Shown here: piece by piece, positions 1 to 50,311 of the stretch
Layout of the letters: each line of letters opens with the position of its first letter
Numbering within the stretch: the first letter of the stretch is position 1
Assembly: GCA_964514965.1 (NCBI GenBank)
Contig: CAZETV010000002.1
Location: 37,547 to 101,546 of the forward strand
Direction: 5' to 3'
From: Candidatus Hadarchaeota archaeon
GTDB lineage: Archaea > Hadarchaeota > Hadarchaeia > Hadarchaeales > Hadarchaeaceae
Length of the DNA stretch: 64,000 nucleotides
Notes under the pieces: generated by a model
Seen by the model: only the letters and a program-made list of their open reading frames with translations
Told to the model about the DNA's origin: nothing
Database searches by the model: none
Position numbers and translations under genes: made by a program

Positions 1-114
1 TTTTTTGCTGGGCGGAAATAGGGAACATCATAGTATTGAAAAGAAGAGAGATAGAGGAAAAAATAAGATGCTGAACCTTCATAGGCTTGCCCTCTGGCTC
101 CAGCGTCACCAATT

Positions 115-399: not shown

Positions 400-611
400 C
401 TTCTCACCTCCAGCTCTTGATTGGTGAGGAAACGTGCATACACCTCGTTTTTGCGTGAACCGTTTCCCGCCAAAGCTTTGGATGGGAGTTCTTTATAAAT
501 GGGAAAACATAATTTCGGGAGTAAGAAGTGTTAGATATATTTTAGAATCAATTGGCTGTTTTTCCGTGTCTACTACATGAGCCCAAATCTAAAAAACGAG
601 CTGGGGGGTTC

Positions 612-869
612 CTAAAGTTTTATCTTGCATCTTCCGCAAACTCTGCGGATGTCAATGTAATCTTTCCATAGGCCCTGAGTCATGGCCCCCACATAATGAG
701 CACAAGTGATGCATATTGAGTCACCACAGAATTCGCATCTACCCCATTTTTTCCCAATATCTTCTATCAACAATTTCTTTCCACAACCAGAACAGACAAG
801 ACTCAAAACTGAATGAACATCAGAAAAGGCGATATCAGGTGCACAATTTAAGAATTCAGCCTTCATCAT
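612..869 (-). CDS. Cys-rich zinc-ribbon-like small protein
   Basis: 85 aa with several CxxC pairs (CSGCG, CEFCGDSICITC, CGRC), which suggests a Zn-ribbon. Confidence 0.35.
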   Translation of the reverse strand: MMKAEFLNCAPDIAFSDVHSVLSLVCSGCGKKLLIEDIGKKWGRCEFCGDSICITCAHYVGAMTQGLWKDYIDIRRVCGRCKIKL

Positions 870-959
870 CCCAGGTGTAAATAGTAAAAATGTTTATAAA
901 TAATTTACATAATTTATGTAGTAATAAGAACCAAAAAATATTGTAAGTAGGGGACCATT

Positions 960-1985: not shown

Positions 1986-2053
1986 ACTAGCGAAAACGAG
2001 ATTTAAAGAATTAATAAAATAGTACACGAAACAAAGAGGGGTGAGTTATTGGT

Positions 2054-3571
2054 ATGGGTGTAAGCTTGAAGGTTTCTAACATCCAAGAGATTGAGAAATT
2101 TGTTAATGAGTCCGGCAGGCCCTGCTTATTTCCGATAGTTGCAACCATCAAAGGTTGCGCCAATCCCGCGAGGGCCTATTTTAACACTAGAAACAACTGC
2201 CTTTCCTACTTGCTTGAGTCAGCTGAAGGCACAGGCAAGCGGGCAAGGTACAGCTTCATTGGAACTGACCCGCTCCTTACACTGAAGGTAAAGAATAGGC
2301 AGTTGAAGCTTGCAGGAAATACGCAGCTAAAGGAGATGGCCAAGAGGAACATTAGGAAGAAAGGTCAAGACATGGACTCAATCGAAATTGTGAAAAGGGC
2401 TTTTTTGGTGGGCCAGTTATCGGTACCGATGATTAATTACCCACGATTTATCTGTGGACCTGTAGGTTACTTCGCTTACGATGCGATTAGGCGTCTCTTT
2501 GATATTGGGAAAAGGGCGAGCGATGACTCGCGACATCCCGATGCTGAGTTTATGCTCGCTAAAAATACAATCGTGTTTGACCATGTGGAGAAAAAGACGT
2601 TTGTTTGCTCCAACGCTTTAATCTCGGAAAATTCGGACCCGAAGGTGGTGTATGCAGACTCATTAAATGAGATTAAAAATAAATTGAAGCAGCTCAATGA
2701 AGCGAAACAACTTCCACGCTTGCAGACAGATGTAGATTTGAAGACGTATATGACATCAAACATGACTCGGGACGAATTCATAGCTGCCGTTAAGCAAGTC
2801 CAAGAGTATATCGATTCAAGCGATTTGTTGCAACTCGTGCTCTCAAGACGAATGGAAACTAAGTTAAAAGAGGATCCCTACTCGGTATACCTCACCCTCC
2901 AGAAGATAAATCCGTCGCCGTACATGTACTATTTAAACTTTGGACGGCGGAAGATAATCGGTTCCAGTCCCGAAACATTGGTCAAGGTCGAGAAAGGGGA
3001 GGTCATGACTAGACCAATAGGCGGGACTAGGCGTCGGGGACGAAGTTTTAAAGAGGACAGGAAAATCAGGCGAGAGTTATTAAAGGATAGAAAAGAACGC
3101 GAGGAGCACATGATGCTCGTACATCTGGGCCGTGAAGACATAAGCAAAGTCGCAAAAGTGGGTTCAGTGAAAGTCAAAAATTTAATGACAATAGATAAGT
3201 ACAGTTATGTTATGCACATAGTTTCTACCGTAGTCGGAGCGCTAAGGGATGACAAAGACGAGTTTGATGCGCTAAGAGCCAATTTCCCTGCTGGCACGGT
3301 GGTTGGTGACCCGAGATTCAGAGCGATGGAGATTATTGAAAAACTCGAGCCGACGCGTAGGGGGATATACGCTGGTGGAGTTGGCTATTTTGATTACAGG
3401 CACAATATGGACTTCGCAATCGCTATCCGGACTATTGTTGTCGAGAATGGTAAAGCATATGCACAGGTTGGAGCCGGGGTCGTATCTAGATCCGTGCCCG
3501 AGTTGGAATTCTACGAGACTGAAAACAAGGGACGGGCGCTCCTCAAAGCAATAAGTATCGCGAAGGCGTAA
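2054..3571 (+). CDS. trpE: anthranilate synthase component I
   Basis: 505 aa with chorismate-binding enzyme motifs (PYMYYLNF, GSSPETLVKV, TRPIGGTRRRG, YAGGVGYF). It is the first gene of the trp operon. Confidence 0.9.
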   Translation: MGVSLKVSNIQEIEKFVNESGRPCLFPIVATIKGCANPARAYFNTRNNCLSYLLESAEGTGKRARYSFIGTDPLLTLKVKNRQLKLAGNTQLKEMAKRNIRKKGQDMDSIEIVKRAFLVGQLSVPMINYPRFICGPVGYFAYDAIRRLFDIGKRASDDSRHPDAEFMLAKNTIVFDHVEKKTFVCSNALISENSDPKVVYADSLNEIKNKLKQLNEAKQLPRLQTDVDLKTYMTSNMTRDEFIAAVKQVQEYIDSSDLLQLVLSRRMETKLKEDPYSVYLTLQKINPSPYMYYLNFGRRKIIGSSPETLVKVEKGEVMTRPIGGTRRRGRSFKEDRKIRRELLKDRKEREEHMMLVHLGREDISKVAKVGSVKVKNLMTIDKYSYVMHIVSTVVGALRDDKDEFDALRANFPAGTVVGDPRFRAMEIIEKLEPTRRGIYAGGVGYFDYRHNMDFAIAIRTIVVENGKAYAQVGAGVVSRSVPELEFYETENKGRALLKAISIAKA

Positions 3572-3572
3572 A

Positions 3573-4640
3573 GTGGGCGATAAATTGGAGATCATGAAAC
3601 ACGCCATATCTAAAGTGGTAAGCGGAGAAGATTTGACCGAAGCTGAAGCAGAGACGACAATGAAGCGCATTATGTCAGGTGAAGCGACTCAGACACAGAT
3701 AAGCTCATTTCTAACTGCGCTTCGCATGAAGAGTGAAACGATTGAGGAGATTGCAGCGTTCGCTAGGGTTATGCGTGAGTTCGCGGCTCGGATAACCCCC
3801 AAGGTGGACGACATCTTGGTCGATACCTGCGGCACTGGTGGTGATAAAGTTAAAACATTCAACATAAGCACAGCTGCGATGTTTGCCGCTGCGGGAGCAG
3901 GAATTAAAATAGCCAAGCACGGCAACCGCTCGGTGACTAGCAAGGCCGGTAGTGCCGATGTTGTTGAAGCCATGGGGATACCGATAAACCTCCTGCCAGG
4001 CGAGGTACAACGTTGCATCGAGAAGATTGGAGTAGGTTTCATGTTTGCTCCACGATTTCATAGTGCTATGAAGTACGCGATAGGTCCACGCCGGGAGATG
4101 GGCATTCGAACTATTTTTAACCTTCTTGGCCCTCTGACAAACCCTGCGAACGCCCAGGGGCAGGTTGTTGGGGTTTATGATGGGATGCTGACCGAGAAGC
4201 TCGCTCAGGTACTCGCGCGCCTAGGCTGCAAGCGAGCAATGGTTGTTTACGGCTTAGACGGGATAGACGAGATATCTACCTTAGGGGAGACAAAAATTTC
4301 GGAGCTTGAAGACAGCAAAGTGAGTACGTATACAATATCGCCCGAAGAGTTCGGCCTCGCGCGAACTCGCTCTGAAGCCATTGCAGGGAAGGACTTGGCT
4401 GAAAATGCTCGAATGTTGCTTAAGGTACTGCGTGGCGAAAAAGGACCACGGAGAGACATCGTGTTGTTGAACGCAGCAGCCGCTATCGTTGTGGGGAGTA
4501 AGGCTAAAGATTTGCAAGAAGGAATTGCTATCGCTGCAGATGCCATCGATTCCGGTAGTGCTTACGAAAAACTCGTTCAACTCATCGAAGCGACGAACGG
4601 CAACTTGGACAAATTAAAAGCGTTGGAGGCTACGATTTGA
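3573..4640 (+). CDS. trpD: anthranilate phosphoribosyltransferase
   Basis: DTCGTGGDKVKTFNISTAAMFAAAGAGIKIAKHGNRSVTSKAGSADV is the classic TrpD glycine-rich / PRPP region. Confidence 0.9.
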   Translation: MGDKLEIMKHAISKVVSGEDLTEAEAETTMKRIMSGEATQTQISSFLTALRMKSETIEEIAAFARVMREFAARITPKVDDILVDTCGTGGDKVKTFNISTAAMFAAAGAGIKIAKHGNRSVTSKAGSADVVEAMGIPINLLPGEVQRCIEKIGVGFMFAPRFHSAMKYAIGPRREMGIRTIFNLLGPLTNPANAQGQVVGVYDGMLTEKLAQVLARLGCKRAMVVYGLDGIDEISTLGETKISELEDSKVSTYTISPEEFGLARTRSEAIAGKDLAENARMLLKVLRGEKGPRRDIVLLNAAAAIVVGSKAKDLQEGIAIAADAIDSGSAYEKLVQLIEATNGNLDKLKALEATI

Positions 4641-5407
4641 ACATTTTGACGAAAATTGTAGAAGACGCTCGAGTCCGCGTCAAGAAGCAGGCAAAAGCCA
4701 AGCCAATCTCGAAAATGAAAATCGATAGGTCGCCCAAGCGGAGTCTGCGCAAGGCTATCGAAAGCGCACCTAAAGTGCCTTTGATTGGGGAGATAAAACG
4801 AGCTTCACCTTCAATGGGCGATATCAACCTTGACCTTGATGTGTTTGAAGTTTCACGCGCGATGGTTCGGGGAGGAGTCATCGCTATTTCAGTGCTGACG
4901 GAGACAAAATATTTCAAAGGCGACTTAAGCTACCTACTAAAGGTACGTAAAGCTGTCGATGTGCCGGTTCTACGGAAAGATTTCATTGTTGACGAGTACC
5001 AGCTATATCAGTCGGTTGAGCTTGGCGCGGACGCAATCTTGTTGATAGCTGGGGTATTGGGGGAGGACCTCAAACGCTTCATTGATCTAGCGCGCGAGCT
5101 TGGGATGGAAAGTTTCGTTGAGGTTGATGAGGCGGAACAGGTGAAATTTGCGTCTGCCGCTGGCGCTGAACTGATGGGGATAAACAACCGTGACTTAAAA
5201 ACCATGCAAGTAGACATCACCCGCACGGCTAGACTTGCGCCTCTCGTGCCTGATAACGTGGTGCTTGTGAGCGAGAGCGGGATGCACATGCCGAACGATA
5301 TTAAATTTGTGCTCGATGCTGGCGCTGATGCTGTGCTCGTGGGAACTTCTTTAATGAAGTCGGGAAATATTGAACAACAAGCGCGATTGTTCGTGAATGC
5401 GAGGTAA
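4637..5407 (+). CDS. trpC: indole-3-glycerol-phosphate synthase
   Basis: IGEIKRASPSMGDI and the LRKDFIVDEYQ motifs. Its start overlaps the trpD stop (ATGA). Confidence 0.9.
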   Translation: MNILTKIVEDARVRVKKQAKAKPISKMKIDRSPKRSLRKAIESAPKVPLIGEIKRASPSMGDINLDLDVFEVSRAMVRGGVIAISVLTETKYFKGDLSYLLKVRKAVDVPVLRKDFIVDEYQLYQSVELGADAILLIAGVLGEDLKRFIDLARELGMESFVEVDEAEQVKFASAAGAELMGINNRDLKTMQVDITRTARLAPLVPDNVVLVSESGMHMPNDIKFVLDAGADAVLVGTSLMKSGNIEQQARLFVNAR

Positions 5408-29656: not shown

Positions 29657-30088
29657 TTACTTCTCCGCCTCTTCCTCAAGCGCCCCCGTATGGAGTGTTT
29701 CCCATTCTACTTTTCCTTGTTCGACCACGCGCTTGAGCTTTCGTTCGACCGGGCTCAGAGCTGCAGTTTTACCGGTCTTGACATCGAGAAATATGATTCT
29801 TCTTGGCTCCCCCTCCTTGTAGCCATCGAACACCAAATAGTCCACAGGCGAACCTATGAACCGCGCATCAGCCGGCTCGTGTTTGAACATCGGCAGCAAG
29901 GGAGCAAGTTGTTCACCAATCCTGCCTTTAAGCACCGCCCGGCTTCGCTCGAGCACCTCTCGCCTGATCCTTTCTTCGAACTCGGCTTTCCATCGTTCGA
30001 ACTGCACAGCCAGCCGCCCTCGGAGATATGTGTAGGCTAAAAAGATGCCGATCAAAAGTCCGATGACGAAAACGACTATCTCGATCAT
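29657..30088 (-). CDS. membrane-anchored PD-(D/E)xK nuclease related to archaeal Holliday-junction resolvase (COG4741-like)
   Basis: N-terminal TM helix, then VDYLVFDG ... IIFLDVKTGK (D...D/E-x-K) and a conserved Glu. Confidence 0.5.
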   Translation of the reverse strand: MIEIVVFVIGLLIGIFLAYTYLRGRLAVQFERWKAEFEERIRREVLERSRAVLKGRIGEQLAPLLPMFKHEPADARFIGSPVDYLVFDGYKEGEPRRIIFLDVKTGKTAALSPVERKLKRVVEQGKVEWETLHTGALEEEAEK

Positions 30089-30398: not shown

Positions 30399-30620
30399 AT
30401 GCCCCAAGTCCAGCTGAGGGTACCTGAGGGAACGCTTGAAGAACTCGATAAATGGGTAAAAGAAGGTAGATTCAAAAGCCGCAGCGGCGCGATCAAAACC
30501 ATCATTGCTTTTTACCAAGAGCGGGAACGAGCGCGCAGCTTCTACAAGATGCTAGTAGAGCGGAGCCGAGAGGCCAAGAAAAAACCAGAACTCCTCATTC
30601 CACTAGGGGAATTAGAGTGA
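30399..30620 (+). CDS. ribbon-helix-helix (CopG-like) antitoxin
   Basis: PQVQLRVPEGTLEELDKWV has the RHH beta-strand plus helices and precedes relE by 4 nt. The longer ORF from 30273 adds the repeated MGRTLFHRTKEAV N-terminal remnant. Confidence 0.6.
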   Translation: MPQVQLRVPEGTLEELDKWVKEGRFKSRSGAIKTIIAFYQERERARSFYKMLVERSREAKKKPELLIPLGELE

Positions 30621-30883
30621 GTTTTCAGGTCTTCCTGCATCCCAAGGCGGTGAACTCTCTACAAAAGTTAGACAAGCTAATCAGGGGCGAAATAAAAAAG
30701 AAGTTGAAGGAGCTGGAAAAGCAGCCCAATTCAGGCAAACGGTTGCGATATTCTAATTTTTGGGGTTTAAGGGTGGGAGACTTTAGGGTTATCTACGAAA
30801 TCGATCGTGCCGAAAAAAGAGTGATTGTATTATTCATCGGACACAGGAAAAAAGTTTACGACGATTTTTCAAGGATATTCTGA
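30617..30883 (+). CDS. relE: RelE/ParE-family toxin
   Basis: 88 aa; GDFRVIYEIDRAEKRVIVLFIGHRKKVY is the RelE fold signature. Confidence 0.75.
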   Translation: MSFQVFLHPKAVNSLQKLDKLIRGEIKKKLKELEKQPNSGKRLRYSNFWGLRVGDFRVIYEIDRAEKRVIVLFIGHRKKVYDDFSRIF

Positions 30884-34719: not shown

Positions 34720-36108
34720 TTGCCCGATTATAAAGAACCTCCGCGCAACGGCTTGACGGGAAAGATGGAGAAGAGACCGATACAGACAAATTTAGACGAT
34801 TTTTCTGAAGTTTATAAAGTTTATAAATTACTTTCACCGACTTCTCCCTCCCCTAAAATCGCATTTATTAATGATCGTAGAGAATGCAAAATGGGGGTGA
34901 CAGTGCAGCAGGGCATACTGTTAGTGCAACCAGAGTTCCCGATCGCTGGTAAGAGCAGGTGGCATAAATCTTTCCTGCCAATCGGGCTCCTAAAGCTCGC
35001 TTCATACTACCGGAAAAAAGGGCACAATGTGAAGTTGGTCTGTGGTAAAAAGAACCTAAAATTTCGACCTGATAAAGTCATGATAAGCTCGCTATTCACG
35101 TATTGGTCCAAATACGTCTGGGATTGCGTTAAACACTACAAACAGCTCTACCCAAATGCCAAGGTTGTGGTCGGTGGGATTTACGCCTCTCTAATGCCAG
35201 AACACTGCAAAAAGTCAGGGTGCGATGAAGTATTCGTTGGGGTGCACAAAAAAGCAGAGAAATGTGAACCTGCATACGATCTTCTTAAAAATAACTCTCA
35301 CCCCATAGACTATCAAATAATTCACACTTCTCGAGGCTGCGTCAGAAAGTGCAAGTTCTGTGGCGTATGGAAGATTGAGCCCGATTTTGAATACAAAAAA
35401 AGCATAAAAGATGAAATTCGAAGCAACCAACTGGTATTTTACGATAACAACCTTTTGGCAAACCCTTACATCGAGAACATTTTGGAGGAGATAGCACATA
35501 CCAAAGTTAACGGCAGGGTCGTGATCTGCGAGAGCCAATGTGGTTTCGATGGACGAATGCTAACCCCTAAGCTCGCAAGGCTAATCAAGGGGGCACATTT
35601 TCAATATCCCAAAATTGCGTGGGACGGGTCTTATTCAGAGCACAAAAACATCAAAAAACAGCTAGACATGCTTATAGATGCTGGCTATAGCCACAAAGAC
35701 GTTTTCGTGTTCATGATATACAACTGGGACCACGATTTCCGCGAGATGCAGAAAAAAAGATTGAAATGCTGGGGGTGGAAGGTGCAGATTTCTGATTGTC
35801 GATACAGACCATTGGAACAGACTTATGATAATTATGATCCGAGGAGAGTACAGACGAACGATGATTATTTTATACATCCAAAATGGACTGATTCTGAGGT
35901 TAAACAGTTTAGAAAAAACGTGCGTAGGCAAAATATTTGTGTTAGGCTGGGATTTTCATTTCATAGCAAAATCTTAGAGCAGAAAAAGCTCGGCAAAAAC
36001 ACGATAAAAAAATTACGAGACATGACACCAACTAAAGCTAAAAAAATGTTGCCAGATGTTTGGAACCCTGGTGAGATTACATTCCCTAAAATGGACTTAT
36101 GTACGTAG
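34720..36108 (+). CDS. B12-binding-domain radical SAM protein
   Basis: N-terminal Rossmann-like B12-binding region plus TSRGCVRKCKFCGV (Cx3Cx2C). AT-rich codon usage. The true start may be Met-58 (34891). Confidence 0.7.
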   Translation: MPDYKEPPRNGLTGKMEKRPIQTNLDDFSEVYKVYKLLSPTSPSPKIAFINDRRECKMGVTVQQGILLVQPEFPIAGKSRWHKSFLPIGLLKLASYYRKKGHNVKLVCGKKNLKFRPDKVMISSLFTYWSKYVWDCVKHYKQLYPNAKVVVGGIYASLMPEHCKKSGCDEVFVGVHKKAEKCEPAYDLLKNNSHPIDYQIIHTSRGCVRKCKFCGVWKIEPDFEYKKSIKDEIRSNQLVFYDNNLLANPYIENILEEIAHTKVNGRVVICESQCGFDGRMLTPKLARLIKGAHFQYPKIAWDGSYSEHKNIKKQLDMLIDAGYSHKDVFVFMIYNWDHDFREMQKKRLKCWGWKVQISDCRYRPLEQTYDNYDPRRVQTNDDYFIHPKWTDSEVKQFRKNVRRQNICVRLGFSFHSKILEQKKLGKNTIKKLRDMTPTKAKKMLPDVWNPGEITFPKMDLCT

Positions 36109-36109
36109 A

Positions 36110-36574
36110 TCATTTTTTCTTTACTTTCTTTGCTATCCCAATTAATTCCGTCTCTAATCTTTTACTAAAGCTACCTTTCCCACTAAAAACCTGATCTTTT
36201 AGAATTTTTATTCCGCCTGCAGCATATTCCTCGACTATTGAATACACTCTTTTTTTATCCAATAGCACTTCTAAATTACCTGCATCTTTTACAGCTACAG
36301 CGTTAATCAAAGCTTTTTCTGTATCGCTAAGGTATTCTGTCCTGATATATCCCGAGGGGTCCTTGTCTGTTATTTTGTGCTTTATTCCATTTTTGAATCC
36401 AACTACCATCGCTGCCAAAAATAAATGTTTTTTATTCTTGTTTCCAAATGGGCTATCTTTTTCTTCCAGCCTTGAAAAATGTTCTTTATCACTTTTTCTA
36501 ATGTAAATTATTGCTGGATCTTTACTTACCATATTTTCCCACCTGCGCTTTTGAGCCTGTTTTAAGTTCTTCAA
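36110..36574 (-). CDS. hypothetical protein, last gene of the candidate defence operon
   Basis: 154 aa, Lys-rich, no recognisable motif. Overlaps the upstream ATPase fragment by 53 nt. Confidence 0.35.
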   Translation of the reverse strand: MKNLKQAQKRRWENMVSKDPAIIYIRKSDKEHFSRLEEKDSPFGNKNKKHLFLAAMVVGFKNGIKHKITDKDPSGYIRTEYLSDTEKALINAVAVKDAGNLEVLLDKKRVYSIVEEYAAGGIKILKDQVFSGKGSFSKRLETELIGIAKKVKKK

Positions 36575-37121
36575 ATATTATTTTGTATTCTCCAATCAAA
36601 TTATCTGATAACTTTTTTCTGACGAATGGTGTATACTCGGTATCAGTCATTAACAGAATAACTTGCTTGTTTTTTAGATATTTGGGTAAATTTTTGCAAA
36701 TGTTTTCCCTTATTTCTCCAGAGATTCTACCCAGCGGGGTATCCATAACTATTGGGAAATCGAAACCAGAATATGCGCTCAAAGCATTTATGAATGATAA
36801 TGCCAACGCTTCCATTTCACCTCTGCTTAAGCTTCCTAATCCTTCGTGGTCTGATCTATGCGTGACGGAAATTTCATAATCATCGTTTATTTTTACATTT
36901 TTCCATTCATCTTTCTTCCAAATTAAATTGAAAAACGATTCTTTTGTGATTTGGTTAATTTTTTCTCTAGTGTCTTTCATAATGTTTTTTTTCACCTTAG
37001 TAGCCAATTCAACGGCTTCATCACAAAATGACACCACTTTGTTTAGCTCATCAAATTCTTTAGATCTTTCTAGTTCTTTATCCCGTTCTCTTCTGTAGGT
37101 CTCGAACTGACTTTCGGCCAT
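36522..37121 (-). CDS. DndD/SMC-like ABC ATPase, C-terminal half (signature + Walker B)
   Basis: LSRGEMEALALSF signature, FPIVMDTPLGRIS Walker B / D-loop as in DndD-type ATPases, and QVILLMTDTEY. Confidence 0.55.
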   Translation of the reverse strand: MAESQFETYRRERDKELERSKEFDELNKVVSFCDEAVELATKVKKNIMKDTREKINQITKESFFNLIWKKDEWKNVKINDDYEISVTHRSDHEGLGSLSRGEMEALALSFINALSAYSGFDFPIVMDTPLGRISGEIRENICKNLPKYLKNKQVILLMTDTEYTPFVRKKLSDNLIGEYKIIFEELKTGSKAQVGKYGK

Positions 37122-37156
37122 TTTAACTCGTGCCTCACGTTCACCGATATCTTCAC

Positions 37157-38482
37157 TTAATTTCGTGATTTCTGTATCAAGGTTTCCGTATCGTTTCTCC
37201 AGTATTTTAAATTTTTCTTCAATTTTTGAATCGACTTGTTCTTTAATTTTTTGCTTTTATTTTCATAGCCAGTTTCTAGTTTTTTGATTTCTCTTTCAAG
37301 TTTGATCATGCTTGTGTCAAAATTTTTAAGGTTATCGATGGATCGGGCTAAATCGGTTTTTAATTTAATCAAATCCGAACTAATGGCGGATATATCGCTT
37401 ATTTTTTTAAGAAGACTCTCAACTTTTTTTCTACAACTGATATTCTTTTTAGTTATGTCCGTCCCACAGATACAATTACCATCTTTAAGTAATTTTTCTA
37501 AATATTTTGGGTCTATATTTGGCGGTACATTTTCTTGGTCTTGTTCTCGAGTAATCTCTTTAATTGTGGATTCTATAGCAGGATAAGTTAGTAAATGCAG
37601 GGAAGAATCTACAAGAAAATCCGTCAATTCATCTCTCTTATCTTTTATTGTTTTTTCAAGATCTTTCAAATCACGTTCAAGTTCTTCCCTGGTTTCCTGT
37701 AAGTTCCTTATATTTGGCATTGACTTTAATTCTTCGGCTATTTCGTTTTTATCCTTAACTTTCCCATCTTTTATTTTACGGAATTTTTCCAAGTCGGCTT
37801 TATAGTTGTTTAAGGATTTCTCCCAAGTATCAATTTTCTCTTGAGCATCTGCAAGAGCGGGAGTTAACTTTTTTGATTTTCTTACAAATTCGTTTTGTAT
37901 TGCTCCCAAGTGCGATATCGCTTTTTCCAACACTTCCAATTGAGAAAGTTTAAAAATCTCCTTTTTTATCTCCTCACCAGATTTTTCTCTAAAATAACTT
38001 TCTAGCTTTTCACCATCAAAAAGAAAATAGTCTACAATACTCCCTGGTATCAACTGATTAGCAACATAAGTCGGATCAGAAACAAATTTCATGTCGTCTC
38101 CGATTTCTCGTAAAAGTTCAAATTTTTGTTTGTTGGGAATTTCTTTTACTTCGCCATTTTCTTCACAATATTTTGTGCTTCTCACAAAAATCGCTTTATT
38201 TCCTTCATTGTCTGTCATTACAATTTCCACTTTTACTTCACATGCTGATGGACTCTCCTTTAAAGAAATAGTATTGACCGTGGGCAAAGCTAAACTTTTT
38301 TTATTTAGGTGTAACTCCCTGCCATATAAGCACCAAGTAATAGCGTTCATTATGTTTGTTTTCCCTGCCCCGTTTCTACCTTCTAAGACGACTATGTTTT
38401 TTTTGCCGAATGGTGCAGGGAACTCTATTATTTCATTTGCATATTGCCTATAATTAATTAATTTAATTTTTTTAATTAACAT
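37157..38482 (-). CDS. DndD/SMC-like ABC ATPase, N-terminal half (Walker A + coiled coil)
   Basis: IKKIKLINYRQY...VLEGRNGAGKTNIMNAITWCLYG, then a long Lys/Glu-rich coiled coil. It is separated from the C-terminal half by 35 nt and a frame change. Confidence 0.6.
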   Translation of the reverse strand: MLIKKIKLINYRQYANEIIEFPAPFGKKNIVVLEGRNGAGKTNIMNAITWCLYGRELHLNKKSLALPTVNTISLKESPSACEVKVEIVMTDNEGNKAIFVRSTKYCEENGEVKEIPNKQKFELLREIGDDMKFVSDPTYVANQLIPGSIVDYFLFDGEKLESYFREKSGEEIKKEIFKLSQLEVLEKAISHLGAIQNEFVRKSKKLTPALADAQEKIDTWEKSLNNYKADLEKFRKIKDGKVKDKNEIAEELKSMPNIRNLQETREELERDLKDLEKTIKDKRDELTDFLVDSSLHLLTYPAIESTIKEITREQDQENVPPNIDPKYLEKLLKDGNCICGTDITKKNISCRKKVESLLKKISDISAISSDLIKLKTDLARSIDNLKNFDTSMIKLEREIKKLETGYENKSKKLKNKSIQKLKKNLKYWRNDTETLIQKSRN

Positions 38483-38485
38483 GAA

Positions 38486-38656
38486 TTATTTCACCGCCTT
38501 TTTTACAAGATTTTCGTACGTTTCACTATACCACCAACGATCTTCCTCGGAGTGGTCTGTTTCTAACATCAATATTTCTTTCAGAAATTTTTTGGTTTTT
38601 TCACTATAATTGCTTTTTTCAATTTCTTTGATGATTCTTTCGTTTAATATAGCCAT
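38486..38656 (-). CDS. small ORF (56 aa) between helicase and ATPase genes
   Basis: MAILNERIIKEIEKSNYSEKTKKFLKEILMLETDHSEEDRWWYSETYENLVKKAVK. Its stop abuts the ATPase ATG. Not in the ORF track (<60 aa). Confidence 0.3.
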   Translation of the reverse strand: MAILNERIIKEIEKSNYSEKTKKFLKEILMLETDHSEEDRWWYSETYENLVKKAVK

Positions 38657-38664
38657 GTGAACCA

Positions 38665-40761
38665 CTATAGGTTAAATTCTTTCCTTATTTTTTTAACTTT
38701 TTCAAGACACTTCGGGGTGTTGTTAGCATCATATGCGAACTCTTCGTATCTCTTTAGCTCTTTTATCAGTATCTTCCTTTCCAATTCAAAAAAATCTGGT
38801 TCGAAAGAACGTTGCGAAGAGGGCAAAACAATAATGTCGTAGAGTGTGGCCTTGTCCTTTCCCGGAAAACGTCTTAAAAGCCTCCCTCTTCTTTGAATGA
38901 ATTCTCTGGGATTACCCGAGCTCGAGAGCAATATGCCTGTTCTGGCGGGTGGAACATCCACTCCTTCGTCTAAACATTTCATTGCAACTAAAATCTGATA
39001 ATCGCCATCGGCAAATTTTCGGAGCAAAATTTCTCGTTGGGCAACGTTTTCGACCGCTGTAAACTTGTGTTGTAAAATATCTCTGTCGTTTAAAATTCTT
39101 TGAACTCTCTTTATCTGTTTTGGCGAACAATAAACAAAGCAATGTCTGGCACCGCCACCGATCTTGTCTAATATTTTTTCAAAAACAACGTATTTGTTTT
39201 GAGCGTTTTTTACGGTCTCTTGACGTTTTATACATAACAAATTAAAAAGTTCCTTTCTCTCCTGGTTAGACTTGCATGCGTAATATTGTCGAGCAATTTT
39301 CTTAGTTTCAGATTGATAGAGGTAAAACTCTTCGTCAGTCATCTCGACGAAATAGGGTTCATATTCGTATGGTGTGAGATAAGTTTCTCCGGTTTTTGGA
39401 TTTACAGTTGTGATGGCATCTTTTATAGAGAAAACTGATACTATATCTCCGAAATACTCAAAAAGTTTTTTGCTTCCAGGTTCATCAAAATATCTTTTAG
39501 GTGTTGCACTTAACCCCAACCTGAATTCATATCGGTCTAACAAACCTTTTTGTCTCTCTGGTGCCCCGAGGGTATGAACTTCGTCGCCAATTAAAAATAC
39601 TTTTGCGCTAGTTTCATTTATTATTTCAGTAAAATCATTACTAGAAATGGTATTTGGGGTAGTTAAAATTATTATTTTTTCACTAATGTCATTTTCTATG
39701 TCCCGCAAGTAGTCAACCAGTTTATTTTTCCAACCTGGATTGCTACTATCAGCGATTACGATAAGCCAATGAATGTCAAATTTTATTATTTCATTTTCCC
39801 ATTGTTTCAGCAAATGTTTGGTGGGTGAAGTAATGACAATGACAAGCTTTTTTTCTGATTCAGACATTTTCTTCAAACATCCCAACGCAGCAAACGTTTT
39901 CCCAGAACCTGTAGCCATTTCAAAAATCCCTTTCTTACCGTTTTCTAACCAATTAGCGATAGCACTCTCTTGATGAGTCCATAACTTGATTGCTTTTTTT
40001 CTTATCCATTCTTTCTTTATCAACCATTTGTCCAGATTCAAAACTTCAACATTGTCTGGAGCTATTTTAATAAGCTTTTCTTTTACGCCGGTGGGGACAT
40101 CGATAACTTTTGTTCTTCTTGCCTGTCCATTCCAGAATTTTTCAAATTTTTTGATATCTGTATCAAGATATTCTTTTTCAGTTTCTTTCCAACTACAAAA
40201 TACTTTAAACTCTTCTATATGCCTCGTCCATCCATAAGCGCTTTCGTTATCAGAACCGCTAAACGATATTCGGTTCCCTTCTACATCTTCTAATATACCG
40301 ACCTTCTGATGAAACAATCCTTCTTTTTCGATAGATTCTTCATCAAGAGGTAGCCCGTCCTCATCATAAACGATTGCTATTTTAATTTCTAGTTTCTTTT
40401 TGGCAATCATCCACCCCAGTGCGCACACATGGTCTTCCACGAATTTATCTTCTAAATTTTCCAATTCTTCAAGCATCATTTTTTCTATCACTTTCTCAGG
40501 AGTTTCATGAGCTTCTCTAATAACTTCAACATCGGATTTTCGTAGTTTGGCGCTTGTAACTAAATACATGAATCCACCATTGGAAATCAATTTAGAAATT
40601 CCTCTCGCGGCAACAGCAAGAGCGCTTGAAGAGAAAAATCCAGCTAACCTTTTATAAGTTACTGATTGGGATAATGCAAGTATGTAAAAGTCATTTAGAA
40701 TATCGTCAATGTCGGAGTCGTAAGCTTTTTTTAGCTTTATACCCTTCAAGGTCATGTTCAC
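38665..40761 (-). CDS. PLD-family (HKD-like) nuclease domain fused to SF2 ResIII/DEAH-type helicase
   Basis: N-terminus has FHQKVGILED...SFSGSDNES (HxK...GSxN). Then ATGSGKTFAA (motif I), LIGDEVH (motif II) and QRRGRLLRR (motif VI). GGAGG SD lies 8 nt upstream of the ATG. Confidence 0.7.
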   Translation of the reverse strand: MNMTLKGIKLKKAYDSDIDDILNDFYILALSQSVTYKRLAGFFSSSALAVAARGISKLISNGGFMYLVTSAKLRKSDVEVIREAHETPEKVIEKMMLEELENLEDKFVEDHVCALGWMIAKKKLEIKIAIVYDEDGLPLDEESIEKEGLFHQKVGILEDVEGNRISFSGSDNESAYGWTRHIEEFKVFCSWKETEKEYLDTDIKKFEKFWNGQARRTKVIDVPTGVKEKLIKIAPDNVEVLNLDKWLIKKEWIRKKAIKLWTHQESAIANWLENGKKGIFEMATGSGKTFAALGCLKKMSESEKKLVIVITSPTKHLLKQWENEIIKFDIHWLIVIADSSNPGWKNKLVDYLRDIENDISEKIIILTTPNTISSNDFTEIINETSAKVFLIGDEVHTLGAPERQKGLLDRYEFRLGLSATPKRYFDEPGSKKLFEYFGDIVSVFSIKDAITTVNPKTGETYLTPYEYEPYFVEMTDEEFYLYQSETKKIARQYYACKSNQERKELFNLLCIKRQETVKNAQNKYVVFEKILDKIGGGARHCFVYCSPKQIKRVQRILNDRDILQHKFTAVENVAQREILLRKFADGDYQILVAMKCLDEGVDVPPARTGILLSSSGNPREFIQRRGRLLRRFPGKDKATLYDIIVLPSSQRSFEPDFFELERKILIKELKRYEEFAYDANNTPKCLEKVKKIRKEFNL

Positions 40762-40975
40762 GCCTCCAATTAAACTAACGACCCACTTTAATTACTTTTT
40801 TAGTCATTTAACTCTATTTATCTTCCTAATTCCATCCCAAGTAGTCCGCCTCGGTCTCGAAAACTCCTCAAAATTAGGACAAAGCCGACCCCGTTTTCTT
40901 GGCTACCAAGATTAAAAAACCAAATATTGCTATCGGCTGCCCTAGCGGTGCTTCTTCACCGGGTAGATCTCCTAC

Positions 40976-42019
40976 CTAAATCTTCCGCTGGGGAATCAGC
41001 CGAGAGTAAAATTCCCTCGGCCTCAGCTCCTTAAATTCCCCGGTTCGCTGGGCTATGTGCTTCCGGATATCCACGCACAGGTGGCATTTCGAGATGTACC
41101 CGTCTGGAGCCTCCTCGTAATCGAATTCCTCGACGGCGAACCTGTACAGTTCTCCCATCCCCGTCACGAGGGCGCTGAGGATCGGGCGGTCATCCAGCCT
41201 CACCCCCTCGCAGATCGATTCCAGGTCCCTCGCATCTCCGAGCGAAAGCCCCCCGCAGTAGCCGGTGATGTAGTTGAAGTAATTGTCGATGTGGAAGTGC
41301 CAGCCCCTCGTCAGCTCGGCCGCACACGAGTCCCCGAAAAATACCTTCGCCGGGTATTTACGGTACAGGTGCCCGAGCTCGTAGGGCGCCCTTCCCATCG
41401 GGAGCAGTTCCAGCCTCAGCGCGTCTTGGCCCGCAAGCTTGAGGGTTTCTTCGAGTGACAAAGTGCCGCTTACCCCCAGCCCCCTCATCAGCTCGTAGAA
41501 GCCCTCCTGATAGACCAGCACGTTCGACCCGAATACCTCCCTGCTCACCTCGATCGCCGTTGCCGCACGCTTGAGGGGGACGTGCTCCAGGATGAAGGGG
41601 TTGACGCTTATCAGGATCCCGTCCAGCCCGGCATCCCTGAGCTTGGAGAGTTTTTCCTTGCAAACTCGACGGCTGGTGCACCAGAAGCAATTAGTCTCGA
41701 CGAAGGTCGCCGGAATCTCGAGCGCCTCGGCAACCTTGGTGAGCTCGAGTAAGAGGTCGAAGTTCATGAAGGGTTCGCCGCCCGTGAAGTGAAGCCCGTA
41801 GTTTATCCCAACGGTCTTGAAGCCGGGCGGATATTGCACCCGAAACCTTCCTGATAGCTCGGTCAGGACCTTTTCGGCATCTCCCAGATCGATCCAATCT
41901 GCATCCCAGCGCGGGGAGCAAGCATACATGCAGTGCTTGCATTCGCCCGTGCATTTGTACGTGAGGAACAAGCCTCCCGAGAAAGGTTCTTCCACTTTTA
42001 AAATCGTCATACAAATCAC
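40976..42019 (-). CDS. radical SAM protein (additional Cys clusters)
   Basis: YKCTGECKHCMYAC Cx3Cx2C near the N-terminus; further Cys at NCFWC, YCGG and CHLC. GC-rich. Confidence 0.7.
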   Translation of the reverse strand: MICMTILKVEEPFSGGLFLTYKCTGECKHCMYACSPRWDADWIDLGDAEKVLTELSGRFRVQYPPGFKTVGINYGLHFTGGEPFMNFDLLLELTKVAEALEIPATFVETNCFWCTSRRVCKEKLSKLRDAGLDGILISVNPFILEHVPLKRAATAIEVSREVFGSNVLVYQEGFYELMRGLGVSGTLSLEETLKLAGQDALRLELLPMGRAPYELGHLYRKYPAKVFFGDSCAAELTRGWHFHIDNYFNYITGYCGGLSLGDARDLESICEGVRLDDRPILSALVTGMGELYRFAVEEFDYEEAPDGYISKCHLCVDIRKHIAQRTGEFKELRPREFYSRLIPQRKI

Positions 42020-45205: not shown

Positions 45206-46060
45206 CTAGAAAGGTGCGAATACGCCCATAAACACGAACCACGCCAAAATTGTTTTTGCGGCTAAACTGAGAATAACGTAAAATCGTTCGCCATAGAGGT
45301 AATCTCTCCAACGTCCGACACCTTTGTACTGTAAGACCATGTTGATCGCGAAGATATTGAACAGAATGAAATAGATGAAAGGGATGAAGTATACGAATGT
45401 TGGAATTTCTCCTCCCACAGAGTTAACAGCAGCAACGAAATAGGCGAAAATCACGACCCATGGAACCCAACCTGAAATCGTCCCCAAGATAAATGGCGAC
45501 CAATTAGTCTTTTTTGTTTTCTGATTGAGAATTTCCATCAAATACCCGAACATTATCATCATCGCGTTTAAGACGAAAATCATGATCAACGACCAAAAAT
45601 CCCAGACACCCACCAACAGTGCAATCAGTAATATCATTATTGAGCTTGAGAAGGCGTACTCGTACCAGCGGTAAGGATTCATCCCTTTTTTCAAATTTTC
45701 ATTGTAACGGTTATTTACCAGATACGAAATCGAAAAGTGCGCTATGGCAGAAATTAGGAGGAAGGAAGCGAGAATCGCCCCCAAATATTCGAAAGTAAAC
45801 AAAATTTGAGGATTCGGTACCACCTCGAATAGGATTGGTTCCGTAGTAATTATTTTTATATCAAGATAGAACGTGTATACATTTCTCGAAAACGTCAGAA
45901 GAAGACCCAACAGCAACATTGCTATCCCCTGAACTAAATGCAAAGAACCTGCGATGGTGTTGAAGCGTTTCAGATAGGTAAAAGTTATAGGTGAGCTGGC
46001 GATTATTTTCTGCCTTTCTTTATAATCCATTGGTGCCCCCATAGTACTAAATATGTCCAA
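45206..46060 (-). CDS. heliorhodopsin (7-TM retinal protein)
   Basis: Seven TM helices with FNTIAGSLHLVQ, NPYRWYEYAFSSSIMILLIA, NAMMIMFGYLME, GWVPWVVIF and QYKGVGRWRDYLYGERFYVILSLAAKTILAW. The Schiff-base Lys sits in the last helix, matching the heliorhodopsin family pattern. Confidence 0.7.
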   Translation of the reverse strand: MDIFSTMGAPMDYKERQKIIASSPITFTYLKRFNTIAGSLHLVQGIAMLLLGLLLTFSRNVYTFYLDIKIITTEPILFEVVPNPQILFTFEYLGAILASFLLISAIAHFSISYLVNNRYNENLKKGMNPYRWYEYAFSSSIMILLIALLVGVWDFWSLIMIFVLNAMMIMFGYLMEILNQKTKKTNWSPFILGTISGWVPWVVIFAYFVAAVNSVGGEIPTFVYFIPFIYFILFNIFAINMVLQYKGVGRWRDYLYGERFYVILSLAAKTILAWFVFMGVFAPF

Positions 46061-47000: not shown

Positions 47001-48914
47001 ATGTCTGCAAGCGCCATAATCCAAGAGATAATTCTAGAAAATTTCATGAGTTACGAATATTCTAGAATCCCATTCAATCCGGGGCTCAACCTAGTTTGCG
47101 GTCCAAACGGCGCTGGAAAGTCATCAATTCTGCTCGCTCTAGCTGTGGCCCTTGGGCAGACCTACACCGAGCGCTCCCGTAAGCTCAGCGACCTCATCCG
47201 CCGGGGTAAGAATCTGGGACGAGTGAGCGTGGTGTTCGACAATTCCCCCCACAATGGAAGGAGGCCCATCCCGAGCGTGAACTCTGATAGTCTAGTCCTT
47301 TCGCGCTATCTGAACCGCGACGGAACCTACTGGCATGAGGCCAATAACCGCACGATAACGAAGGGCGAGGTGCTGCGGCTGCTCGGGCGGCTCTCGATAA
47401 ACCCCGACAACATGCTCATCATCATGCACCAGAACATGATTGATGTGCTCGGGGCGATAGATGCACACGAGCGGCTAAAAATCATCGAGGAAGCGGTCGG
47501 GCTGCGCGAGTACCGGGAGCATATCCTCGAGGCGCGTGAGAAGCTTTCGCACACCTTGAGCGAGGAGGAGTCGATTCGCAGCCTGCTCGAGAAAGCTCAA
47601 GAAACGTTGCGCTACTGGGAGGGCGAGTACGGGAGATTTCAGCGGAAGCAAGAGCTCGGAGAGCGGAAGCAGGAGCTAGAGCTGGAATACGCTTGGGCGA
47701 AATGTATCCGGCAGGAAGAGGCGGTCGGCAACCTTCAATCTAAACTCGACGGGCTAAAGTCAGAGCTGAGTGAGATCGAGGGCGAGCTGGAGCAAAACTC
47801 GAAACGTGGCGGGGAGCTTGAAAAAAAGTTGGGGGAACTTGGGTTTGAACTCGATGCTGCCTATCAAAAGCTCATCACCCAAGAACGGGCACAAGCCGAA
47901 GCGGGGGCACGCGCCAAGCTCATTGAGAGTTTCAACACATCCATACGCTCGGTGGCCGAAGTTGGCTTGAGTGAATTGCTCGCACACCTCGAGGTCGAAC
48001 TGGGGCGGGCGAAAGAAACCCTTAAAGAAGCCGGCGAGCGGGCGAATGAGGTGAAATCTGAACTCGTCAGGGGCAAGGGCGAACTCGAGAAAACCCAAGA
48101 AACTTACGTTAACTCCCGTATCCACACCGCCGTGCTGGGGTTCCGCCGCGAACTCCTAGAACGTGACATCTCAAGCGCTCAGTCCGAACTCAGGCGAGCA
48201 CGCCGCGAGCTGGAACAACTGGAGAATGATGCCCAGCAATTGGGGACGCGGGTCGAGACCGAAAGAAAGCCCCAGGAAGTGCTCGATGAACTCAAACTCA
48301 CCAACATCCAACTAGCCAGCTTAGCTGATGTCTCACCCGATGTCGAGAGGATGTATCTAAACTACAAGGGTACACTCAAGGAACTCGAGGCAAAGGCCGA
48401 GGTAGCTGCAGCCAACCGTAAGCGGGCGCTCGATGAGCTGGAACTCAGAAAGCAGCGCTGGACCGATGAAACAAACAACCTTATACGTCAAGTTAAGGTG
48501 AACTACATCGAAATCCTGAAGCGAGTTAACGCGAGCGGTGATGTGATTCTGACGAACGCTCAAGATATCGACGAAGCAGGGATAGAGCTGTTCGTTGGTT
48601 TCAGGGGGTCCGAACCTCAGGTGCTGAACGCCTACACACAGAGCGGAGGGGAACGAACGACTTCCCTAATGTGTTTTCTGCTGGCGCTGCAGCAACAAAT
48701 TCAATCCCCCATCCGTGCAATCGACGAGTTTGAAGCCCATCTGGACCCACACAATCGGGAGGCAATCCTGCAGGGGATTATAGAGTTCATGAAGGGCGGG
48801 GAGACGCAGTACATCGTGATCACCCCCGGACAGCTTTTCAACGTGAAAGGGATACCAAACGTGATCACCGTTCAAAACATCGCGGGCTCATCTCAGGTGA
48901 AGGTGGCTGCTTGA
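47001..48914 (+). CDS. short SMC-like ATPase (about 640 aa)
   Basis: N-terminal FMSYEYSRIPF..LNLVCGPNGAGKSSILLALAVALG, a long coiled coil, a C-terminal QSGGERTTSLMCFLLALQ signature and IRAIDEFEAHLD Walker B. Confidence 0.7.
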   Translation: MSASAIIQEIILENFMSYEYSRIPFNPGLNLVCGPNGAGKSSILLALAVALGQTYTERSRKLSDLIRRGKNLGRVSVVFDNSPHNGRRPIPSVNSDSLVLSRYLNRDGTYWHEANNRTITKGEVLRLLGRLSINPDNMLIIMHQNMIDVLGAIDAHERLKIIEEAVGLREYREHILEAREKLSHTLSEEESIRSLLEKAQETLRYWEGEYGRFQRKQELGERKQELELEYAWAKCIRQEEAVGNLQSKLDGLKSELSEIEGELEQNSKRGGELEKKLGELGFELDAAYQKLITQERAQAEAGARAKLIESFNTSIRSVAEVGLSELLAHLEVELGRAKETLKEAGERANEVKSELVRGKGELEKTQETYVNSRIHTAVLGFRRELLERDISSAQSELRRARRELEQLENDAQQLGTRVETERKPQEVLDELKLTNIQLASLADVSPDVERMYLNYKGTLKELEAKAEVAAANRKRALDELELRKQRWTDETNNLIRQVKVNYIEILKRVNASGDVILTNAQDIDEAGIELFVGFRGSEPQVLNAYTQSGGERTTSLMCFLLALQQQIQSPIRAIDEFEAHLDPHNREAILQGIIEFMKGGETQYIVITPGQLFNVKGIPNVITVQNIAGSSQVKVAA

Positions 48915-48915
48915 A

Positions 48916-49707
48916 ATGCCGGGCGAACGCAAAGAACTGATGTTACGGATAATCGACCTCTGCGACACTGTGCGAAAGCGAGGAGTCGACCCCTTCGACG
49001 TTGAGGTTCGAGAGTTTTTTGACCGACTGCGGGAACTCCTCCCAAATCTGAAAAAGAATGAGGACCTTTATCTTGACATCCAAGCGGTGCTCGGGCTTGC
49101 CGATGTGGTGTTCCAGCAGGGCGAGTGGATCAAGCACAAGTCGTCGATGCTCTACCTCGATCCCCTGCTGATTATGCTCAAGCTTCATGCCCTCCCGGCG
49201 CGAGAGCTTGCCGATGTCTTCGCGCGTTCATGGCACCCCATTGTGCAGATGGAGACACTCTCGCCCCACGGCATTTCCGAGGCCAAGCAGTACTGGACTA
49301 ATCTACCGAGCCTTGAAGAACGCTGGCGTGGGCTCGACACGACTGAGGTGTTTACTGGGGAGATAGCCCGCCGAGAGCTCGTTCGCATGGGCATCCTTTC
49401 AGAGGAAGACTTCGCGGCGGTGCTTGATCAGACTTGGCGCGAGCTCAAGGAAGCGGTGGGGGAGCGGGGCGAAATCTCTTACTGGGATTTCATCCACAAC
49501 CAGAGCTTCGAGGAAACCGTCAGGCGGGCATGGCTCGTGAGCTTCTTGGTGAGCTATGGCTACGCCACTCTCGAACTCAAGCCCCTTGAGGAGGAAATTT
49601 TGCTGAGACCGTTGCCCAAACCGCGAGAACTCGAACGTGTCACAACCTTCTCTGTCCCTATCGCTATTTCCCGTGACGAGTGGCTCAGGAGGCTAAAGGG
49701 TGGCTGA
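48916..49707 (+). CDS. ScpA/kleisin-like protein
   Basis: Its TGA overlaps the SMC-like stop. The N-terminal helical region (LRIIDLCDTVRKRGVDPFDVEV..FFDRL) resembles ScpA. Confidence 0.45.
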   Translation: MPGERKELMLRIIDLCDTVRKRGVDPFDVEVREFFDRLRELLPNLKKNEDLYLDIQAVLGLADVVFQQGEWIKHKSSMLYLDPLLIMLKLHALPARELADVFARSWHPIVQMETLSPHGISEAKQYWTNLPSLEERWRGLDTTEVFTGEIARRELVRMGILSEEDFAAVLDQTWRELKEAVGERGEISYWDFIHNQSFEETVRRAWLVSFLVSYGYATLELKPLEEEILLRPLPKPRELERVTTFSVPIAISRDEWLRRLKGG

Positions 49708-50311
49708 GGAACCAGATGTCGCCGAGCTACGGGAAAAGCTGGCGCGGGCTGCACAGCTCCTGCTCTACAAGCACCACATGCAACCGGGAGCCAAGGAATG
49801 GGAGCTCAGGCGCACTCTGGGCAGGGACTACGAGCAGATTCTGAAGCTTCTCGACGCCGAATTCGATAAACTGGGGCTAAAAGTAAAGCGAGTGAGCGAG
49901 GGCGAGACCAGCTCGGAATCGGACAGATATTATGTCACGCTCCGAGGGCATCCGAGAGTGACCGAGACCCGAACCTTCGGGTGGCGGATTGATGACATGG
50001 CAATGCTCACCGTCGCGCTCGCCCACATCCTATCAAAACAGGGAAAAGCCCCCCTCAAAGAGGTCGAGCGAATGTTGGAGGAAAAATTCCCGCGCTGGCG
50101 CATCGAGTCGACTTTAGACCGGTTCATCCGGCGGGGCTACCTGTCGGAGGATGATGAAGGGTTGCTCTACGTGGGGTGGCGCGCTCGGGCGGAAATCGAC
50201 CAGCGAACTCTGCTCGGGTTGTTGTTGGGGAAAGAAGAGAAGCCTAACGAAGCTGAGGCCGAGCCGAAAGTCGAAACCAAGAAAGTAGAAGAAACTAAAG
50301 GAGATAGCTAA
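49700..50311 (+). CDS. ScpB/kite-like winged-helix protein
   Basis: Two predicted wH repeats and an acidic C-terminus. Overlaps the ScpA-like stop. Confidence 0.4.
   Translation: MAEEPDVAELREKLARAAQLLLYKHHMQPGAKEWELRRTLGRDYEQILKLLDAEFDKLGLKVKRVSEGETSSESDRYYVTLRGHPRVTETRTFGWRIDDMAMLTVALAHILSKQGKAPLKEVERMLEEKFPRWRIESTLDRFIRRGYLSEDDEGLLYVGWRARAEIDQRTLLGLLLGKEEKPNEAEAEPKVETKKVEETKGDS

Follow-up and report, generated by a model that had tools for sequence, protein, structure and literature searches.

The 64,000-nucleotide (nt) stretch of contig CAZETV010000002.1 from a Candidatus Hadarchaeota archaeon that was analysed here (the window) contains, between positions 36,110 and 40,761, a block of minus-strand genes which we read, with a probability of roughly 0.85, as a horizontally acquired PbeABCD cassette, also called a CxC ABC ATPase-DndE system, of the dnd-less or "solitary" kind, lying in an archaeal chromosome. 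An earlier note on this DNA had presented the block as an unnamed and uncharacterised gene combination. Matches to the PADLOC PbeA and PbeC models and to NCBIfam families place the genes in PbeABCD, a named system of identical content and order. The domain-level reading in that note as a defence operon – a PLD/HKD nuclease fused to a superfamily 2 (SF2) helicase, a DndD-like ABC ATPase in two open reading frames (ORFs), and small ORFs – holds.

Gene content and identity of the cassette

The product of pbeA (Table 1) unites an HKD nuclease and an SF2 helicase in one polypeptide. It matches the PADLOC PbeA model (PDLC02707) over its full length (E 2e-231), NCBIfam TIGR04095 (dnd_restrict_1, DNA phosphorothioation system restriction enzyme; E 1e-128, 430 bits against a cut-off of 600) and, at residues 14–326, NF042964 (phospholipD_antiphage; E 2e-20). 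Its Pfam domains are ResIII, DEAD and Helicase_C. The motifs quoted in the earlier note are present, and alignment of 40 PbeA homologues showed H149-x-K151-x5-D157...G167-S168-x-N170 (HKD), GxGKT, DEVH and QRxGR to be invariant.

The ATPase is encoded by two ORFs, of 441 and 199 amino acids (aa). Because both match collinear parts of a single 618-position model, PADLOC PbeC (PDLC02723; positions 3–421, E 2e-72, and 466–618, E 1e-42, respectively), they are regarded as one pbeC gene. Pfam reports AAA_23 and SMC_N in the 441-aa fragment, and the protein is a coiled-coil ABC ATPase with an apical CxC zinc hook, the two columns of which hold Cys/Cys in 68 of 68 proteins from the PbeC position as against 2 of 31 from the DndD position. 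Hidden Markov models (HMMs) of DndD match both fragments as well (E 1e-21 to 1e-24). By the equivalog test of TIGR03185, however, the protein is not DndD: the fragments score 75 and 87 bits and the intact PbeC of the related locus L001 scores 175, against a cut-off of 245.85, and CxC is present.

Right after pbeC, completing the operon order A-B-C-D, comes pbeD, which encodes a DndE-type tandem ribbon-helix-helix (RHH) protein. Its NCBIfam match is TIGR04062 (dnd_assoc_4, DNA phosphorothioation-associated protein 4; E 2e-10, 40.8 bits against a cut-off of 74.25); the Pfam library used, from which PF27807 was absent, gave no match. DndE was the top structural match. As the profile-profile signal is only marginal (hhalign alignments of PbeD with DndE, probability 6%, E 0.006), the kinship of PbeD and DndE rests on the structure search. 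A fusion of PbeD to a SLFN_AlbA_2 domain was observed in locus L176 (9288–10241).

A small, fast-evolving ORF, pbeB, lies between pbeA and pbeC, and an ORF of 56–68 aa fills this slot in relatives too. In pairwise comparisons with relatives the ratio of nonsynonymous to synonymous substitution rates (dN/dS) is about 0.8 for pbeB versus 0.13–0.33 for pbeA, pbeC and pbeD. The gene was found by tblastn in close relatives only, homology not being detectable further out, and its product has no family match in Pfam (at the gathering score), PADLOC or NCBIfam.

These genes are co-conserved in other genomes. The order pbeA, small ORF or gap, pbeC, pbeD is kept in 75 of 80 loci taken from GTDB representative genomes of Bacteria and Archaea, and in every close relative. 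The best GTDB match to the window PbeA reaches no more than 50% identity. In one Methanobrevibacter locus (L085, 457–9468) a complete pbe cassette is preceded by an extra pbeC-pbeD pair, and three DNA methyltransferase genes come after the cassette.

The one PbeABCD system tested experimentally is that of Haloterrigena jeotgali A29, where PbeB has 66 aa, PbeD has 152 aa and PbeC is SMC-like (Xiong et al. 2019, PMC6459918). The window cassette has the same four genes in the same order, both are archaeal, and the sizes are alike (PbeB 56–59 aa here, PbeC about 650 aa, PbeD about 150 aa); it differs in having no adjacent dndCDEA, in its frameshifted pbeC and in its conserved neighbour, a B12-binding radical SAM gene. 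The Aravind group lists as the parts of CxC ABC ATPase-DndE systems an HKD nuclease with an SF2 helicase, a fast-evolving small protein, a CxC zinc-hook ABC ATPase and a DndE cognate (PMC10853773). The HKD endoDNase-SF2 fusion, the fast-evolving small protein and the CxC zinc-hook ATPase were all verified here, and the window PbeD shows the long loops and long C-terminal helix of the clade-2 DndE of those systems. The partners named for their dnd-less members are C5 and N4 cytosine methylases and MTaX1 (PMC10853773), unlike the radical SAM gene found here. With the DndD-DndE of DndABCDE the cassette shares the homologous ATPase and double-RHH pair, but it has the CxC hook that DndD lacks, and has no DndC, DndA or DndB. 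The CxC systems were reportedly first described by Krishnan et al. in 2020 (NAR).

Modification genes were sought in the scanned window ORFs of 250 aa and longer, three of 225–248 aa and the immediate neighbours of the locus, a scan that reached 36 kb to one side and 23 kb to the other, within the window. None of these ORFs encodes PAPS_reduct (DndC), Aminotran_5 (DndA), DndB or a DNA methyltransferase, the earlier note likewise having seen no methyltransferase and no dndA or dndC, and no adjacent dndCDEA is found within about 10–20 kb. Solitary systems are common: 320 of 553 pbeAC cases were without dnd genes, 155 of those 320 being near a methyltransferase, and what solitary PbeABCD pairs with was left as an open question, about half having no candidate modifier (Xiong et al. 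2019, PMC6459918).

The earlier note saw in the locus an unrecognised system akin to NgoAVII/CglI-type restriction, with a DndD-like partner. The pairing of PLD nuclease and helicase does recall those enzymes, and the R and H proteins of NgoAVII/CglI, like the R subunits of Type I/III enzymes, combine HKD/PLD nuclease chemistry with an SF2 translocase. In NgoAVII/CglI-type systems, however, nuclease and helicase are separate proteins, accompanied by a domain dedicated to DNA recognition and by a cognate methyltransferase, whereas in the window the two are fused and partnered with an ABC ATPase-DndE pair. Set against the exact composition, the HMM matches to PbeABCD and the more than 4,400 PbeA homologues found at E 1e-20 or below, this explanation is hardly tenable. 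Some results nevertheless tell against the PbeABCD assignment. The NCBIfam scores of PbeA, PbeD and PbeC (the last with the DndD model) all fall under the curated cut-offs, as for a divergent member of those models, and Pfam PLDc_2 misses the window PbeA even at E of 1 or below, while matching 20 of 40 PbeA family members, weakly. A sequence search of the PDB returned only XPB/Rad25-like helicases and Rad50 heads and no solved PbeA or PbeC; scans of IMG/VR were uninformative, with a handful of full-length PbeA or radical SAM relatives on viral contigs.

For the tested H. jeotgali system, with the genes expressed in Natrinema, all four pbe genes were indispensable, protection depended on phosphorothioated host DNA, and viral DNA replication stopped without visible degradation (PMC6459918). 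It has been proposed that PbeC and PbeD scan DNA, that the HKD nuclease does the cutting and that PbeB is a negative regulator (PMC10853773). In the present cassette PbeC would be a Rad50-like coiled-coil ABC ATPase that dimerises via its CxC zinc hook, and together with PbeD, a DndE-type double-RHH DNA binder, it would form a DNA-scanning core. PbeA would contribute ATP-driven translocation through its SF2 helicase together with its HKD nuclease, PbeB would serve as a small fast-evolving regulator, and the self-mark in this clade might be supplied by the B12-binding radical SAM enzyme.

A frameshift in pbeC

A gap of 35 nt and a change of frame between the two ATPase ORFs had been pointed out before and were confirmed; as to whether they reflect a frameshift or a genuine split, alignment with intact relatives (MAFFT) shows a frameshift. 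A single intact pbeC of 654–656 aa is present in L001 (96% nucleotide identity), L002 (88%) and L003 (78%), and two members of a cluster of >90% identity also encode a pbeC of 656 aa. When the window is aligned with L001, L002 and L003, the relatives carry 10 extra nt at 37241–37252. The window pbeC is broken by the 10-nt slipped-strand loss of one tandem copy of AAAATTAAAG, which shifts the reading frame. Tblastn against the intact L001 pbeC switches frame past residue 414, and from residue 415 the 5' fragment runs out of frame for 27 codons to a premature stop at 37157. In three-frame translation the original frame has no stop from about 37256 onward, and the 41 codons that separate the deletion from the Met of the 199-aa ORF are still open in it. 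That Met is an ordinary internal residue in the intact relatives, and the 199-aa fragment is 95% identical in aa sequence to the C-terminus of the 656-aa L001 PbeC. Between the 441-aa product and a possible 199-aa one, some 40 residues of the descending coiled coil have dropped out of frame. The window thus has no single intact PbeC of about 650 aa, which bears on the integrity of this copy and not on its family identity.

No other lesion was found in pbeC and substitutions are mostly synonymous, which argues that the lesion is recent. The other genes are intact and under purifying selection in pairwise comparisons; this copy most likely represents a recently inactivated system. Since all four genes are required in the tested system and pbeC is frameshifted here, the copy is probably inactive.

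Several observations weigh against inactivation, and would suit a true two-polypeptide ATPase, or one rescued by frameshifting on the A6 run, in a system that is still active. Both pbeC fragments are long ORFs, the C-terminal one opening at a Met and containing all C-terminal ABC motifs, and the sequence past the lesion is undegraded. Rad50 heads are known to assemble from separate halves, and PDB entries 1ii8 and 3qkr list the N and C halves separately, so a two-piece PbeC is physically possible. The A6 run lies exactly at the junction, where a -1 ribosomal slip or a one-A transcriptional insertion would give a product short of three residues only; low-level full-length PbeC through such slippage is possible. 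Such a split is, however, absent from the five closest relatives for which pbeC data exist and from all 68 PbeC-position proteins of the GTDB loci. The Met at which the C-terminal fragment opens is merely internal in intact relatives, the coiled-coil residues between the fragments are gone from both products, and the junction heptamer is out of the canonical X XXY YYZ phase for -1 frameshifting, all of which makes an active split enzyme improbable.

It is also very improbable that the deletion is an artefact of assembly or sequencing, or a minority variant, and that the real pbeC is intact. The contig is metagenome-derived, the lesion falls in a short tandem repeat within AT-rich DNA, all relatives are intact, and the two deletion-bearing assemblies may stem from the same reads. 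Those assemblies, however, come from different software – the 245-kb NCBI contig and a 55.6-kb contig of the Logan assembly of SRR14802574, the latter 100% identical to the window across 21,344 nt – and a loss of 10 nt is atypical of homopolymer or base-calling error.

A B12-binding radical SAM gene beside the cassette

The radical SAM gene that converges on pbeD had been described as a boundary of the island. It is in fact a conserved neighbour of pbe, and nothing else in the locus is of greater interest. The protein has an N-terminal B12-binding domain (Pfam B12-binding, 36.7 bits against a gathering score of 32.1) and a Pfam Radical_SAM match, together with the CxxxCxxC core of class B radical SAM enzymes; these cysteines (C150, C154, C157) and four further ones are invariant in 36 homologues. 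An AlphaFold2 model with a predicted local distance difference test (pLDDT) score of 92 has MgmA, AprD4, TsrM, MtaB and MiaB as its nearest PDB folds (Foldseek E 3e-12 to 3e-8, TM-score 0.52–0.64), at a sequence identity of only 10–14%. With these enzymes, among them the class B members TsrM and MgmA, it shares a Rossmann-like B12-type domain, the radical SAM barrel and CxxxCxxC; the four extra invariant cysteines and the low identity set it apart. The protein is predicted to be of the class B (cobalamin-dependent) type, though the fold by itself is no proof: AprD4 has the same fold, yet makes no use of cobalamin. We know of no member of the TsrM, MgmA, AprD4, MtaB or MiaB families that acts on DNA.

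The gene adjoins pbe in L001–L003 and also in L004 and L005, whose radical SAM proteins are 77–79% identical to that of the window while PbeD is only 41–53% identical. It stands beside pbe in L173–L176 as well, that is, in all four of the longer metagenomic contigs sampled at 54–59% PbeA identity. Each of the eight closer relatives with a long enough flank has it. Accessory families were defined by clustering all flanking ORFs of the 80 GTDB loci, the radical SAM cluster being formed by single linkage. With 17 loci, this cluster ranks second among the accessory families, behind the dnd genes (DndC in 26, DndA in 19, DndE in 19 and DndB in 15 loci); a helix-hairpin-helix (HhH)-containing protein of about 950 aa occurs in 15 loci, and DNA methyltransferases of three clustered families in 14. 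Scored for co-occurrence, 26 loci have DndC only, 16 the radical SAM gene only and 13 a methyltransferase only; one has both a radical SAM gene and a methyltransferase, 24 have none of these, and DndC and the radical SAM gene never occur together. The radical SAM gene abuts the pbe operon in 16 of its 17 loci, with one intervening gene in L024, and is found on the same strand after pbeD, on the same strand before pbeA, or divergent from pbeA. Sister loci of the same PbeA clade have a methyltransferase in these slots, either divergent upstream (L013, L038, L040) or after pbeD (L085). In a neighbour-joining tree of PbeA, the radical SAM-linked cassettes form two coherent clades, and 12 of 15 members of the window's clade have the gene. 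As a caution, the radical SAM proteins of the other clade share only 24–28% identity with the window protein, and Pfam detects no B12 domain in them.

The HhH protein, of about 850–1300 aa, with helix-hairpin-helix/RNAP alpha-CTD-like motifs and a weak partial match to PglW, was observed directly upstream of pbeA in L052, L053, L060, L074, L076 and L077 and in nine other GTDB loci, all of one bacterial Pbe clade. Six of the loci with this protein also have a radical SAM gene after pbeD.

This Pbe clade may have in the radical SAM enzyme a modification partner that has not been described before, and this enzyme, rather than dndCDEA, would be the likeliest provider of the self-mark. The fuller proposal is that it self-marks the dnd-less PbeABCD clade, as a portable module, with a DNA modification distinct both from phosphorothioate and from the conventional base methylation of SAM-dependent methyltransferases; this is put forward tentatively, and we consider it rather unlikely. 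That the gene is no partner at all, but an independent defence or metabolic gene co-resident in defence islets, is a serious possibility, if one short of even odds. Like OxsB and viperins, for instance, the enzyme might produce a small antiviral molecule.

Several observations favour such independence. Close homologues of the window protein are also operonic with other defence-like cassettes: homologues of 60–76% identity lie beside a GHKL ATPase and a PF28273 protein (L008/L094, L009, L010, L095, L096), AIPR/AbiU (L007), an SNF2 helicase (L006) or a NurA-like gene and a 570-aa gene (L097). The window gene is convergent with pbe and not co-transcribed with it. Against this, 17 of 80 GTDB loci have the gene next to pbe, often on the same strand and at a spacing of 0–10 nt; it accompanies dndC in 0 of 26, sits where sister loci have DNA methyltransferases and is linked to PbeA proteins of coherent clades; L004 and L005 have retained the pairing in spite of the divergence of PbeD. 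The occurrence of one module among varied restriction-like cassettes is moreover the pattern of the dnd modification genes too, so that the spread of the radical SAM gene fits either a portable modification module or an independent island-resident gene. No link between Pbe or CxC systems and radical SAM enzymes was met with in the supplement and full-text literature searched, which included PMC10853773 and did not cover the 2020 first description of the CxC systems.

The GHKL ATPase (HATPase_c_3, 515–554 aa), the 277–336 aa PF28273 ("PP_RS20740") protein and the homologue of the window radical SAM protein make up a unit in their own right, the genes of which overlap or abut on one strand in L096 and L010. 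No PADLOC system matches this unit, and its presence in five distinct loci makes it a candidate for an undescribed cassette.

Islet borders and surrounding genes

All five co-directional minus-strand ORFs of the earlier note were recovered (Table 1). The note had also described abutting genes with overlaps of 4–53 nt. The abutting operon stands. The 53-nt overlap does not: since shorter starts are called in near-identical public contigs (pbeA at ATG 40755, pbeD at ATG 36532), it is an artefact of taking the longest ORFs. The likely junctions are a 1-nt overlap or an 8-nt gap between pbeA and pbeB, a 3-nt gap between pbeB and pbeC and an 11-nt overlap between pbeC and pbeD.

Table 1. Features of the pbe locus, in window coordinates
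Feature	Position	Strand	Longest ORF	Description
B12-binding radical SAM gene	34765–36108	+		447 aa in public gene calls; converges on pbeD, with 1 nt between the two stop codons
pbeD	36110–36532	-	36110–36574 (154 aa, from TTG 36574)	140 aa; DndE-like tandem ribbon-helix-helix DNA-binding protein
pbeC 3' fragment	36522–37121	-	36522–37121 (199 aa)	199 aa from internal Met; descending coiled coil, LSRGE, Walker B/D-loop VMDTPLGRIS
pbeC 5' fragment	37157–38482	-	37157–38482 (441 aa)	441 aa; Walker A GRNGAGKT, ascending coiled coil, CxC zinc hook (C-I-C, residues 337–339)
10-nt deletion site	37241–37252	-		AAAATTAAAG once here after A6 run, twice in tandem in relatives
pbeB	38486–38665	-	38486–38665	59 aa (start GTG 38665) or 56 aa (start ATG 38656); highly charged
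pbeA	38665–40755	-	38665–40761 (698 aa, from GTG 40761)	696 aa; N-terminal HKD (PLD-superfamily) nuclease and SF2 (ResIII/XPB-like) helicase
pbeA 5' non-coding region	40756–40946	-		similarity to L001, L002 and L003 reaches 40890–40946, then ends

The AT-rich island of the earlier note is borne out by the GC profile as a low-GC islet: the GC fraction is 0.33–0.37 across 36.0–40.5 kb, 0.41–0.46 in the radical SAM gene and 0.55–0.60 on both flanks. Nucleotide similarity to the relatives covers 34.9–40.95 kb, that is, the radical SAM gene and pbe. The right edge of the transferred cassette is the upstream region of pbeA, GC climbing to 0.60 from 41000. At the island edges only short AT-rich repeats of low identity were found in a search for att-like direct repeats, none of them convincing, and no tRNA, the sole tRNA gene being at 14.6 kb. 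In the relative L002 (88% nucleotide identity; region 97–5131) the pbe cassette is directly downstream of a gene for a tyrosine integrase and an MCM/primase gene; there it rides an integrated archaeal element, whose integrase and MCM/primase genes are absent from the window. The low-GC islet and the L002 copy beside these genes argue for mobility, and the cassette appears to travel as a unit of about 6.2 kb that includes the B12-binding radical SAM gene. The remainder of the window is that of an archaeal host, with genes for thermosome, deoxyhypusine synthase, NucS and Lhr helicase, and with trp genes, CorA, Hsp20, PGK and GAPDH as in an ordinary archaeal chromosome.

Directly upstream of the islet lies a second, GC-rich radical SAM gene (40976–42019, -), with a weak match to the YydG family (E 2e-10) and a very weak one to viperin (E 8e-5); it looks like a host gene and is not shared by the pbe relatives. 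Public gene calls on an identical contig place an ORF for a ParE-family toxin (30617–30883, +) and a Holliday-junction-resolvase-like gene (Endonuc_Holl; 29657–30088, -) a few kb from the islet. A heliorhodopsin gene is found at 45206–46060 (-; Pfam PF18761, E 2e-91). At 47001–50311 (+), about 6 kb from pbeA, lies what may be another defence cassette: a gene for a 637-aa SMC/ABC-type ATPase (PADLOC mad3, E 2e-29; LmuB, E 6e-19) and, after it, two ORFs (263 and 203 aa) that overlap each other and match no family. Its ATPase gene (47001–48914) was considered as a hidden DndD and rejected, as it matches mad3/LmuB-type models and not DndD/PbeC.

The genes singled out in the earlier note are thus an ordinary, probably dead copy of a named system; the observation was correct and the reading of the domains sound, but the system had already been named and characterised, and the claim of a new defence system should go. 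The linkage of the radical SAM gene to pbe is a lead and not yet a finding. If the proposed self-marking role were true, part of the "solitary PbeABCD" puzzle of 2019 would be explained, and the enzyme would be, to our knowledge, the first of the cobalamin-type radical SAM enzymes to act on DNA in a restriction-modification-like system. As a modifier it would point to a novel chemistry of DNA and add to archaeal and bacterial immunity a new gene for modification, modular in kind.

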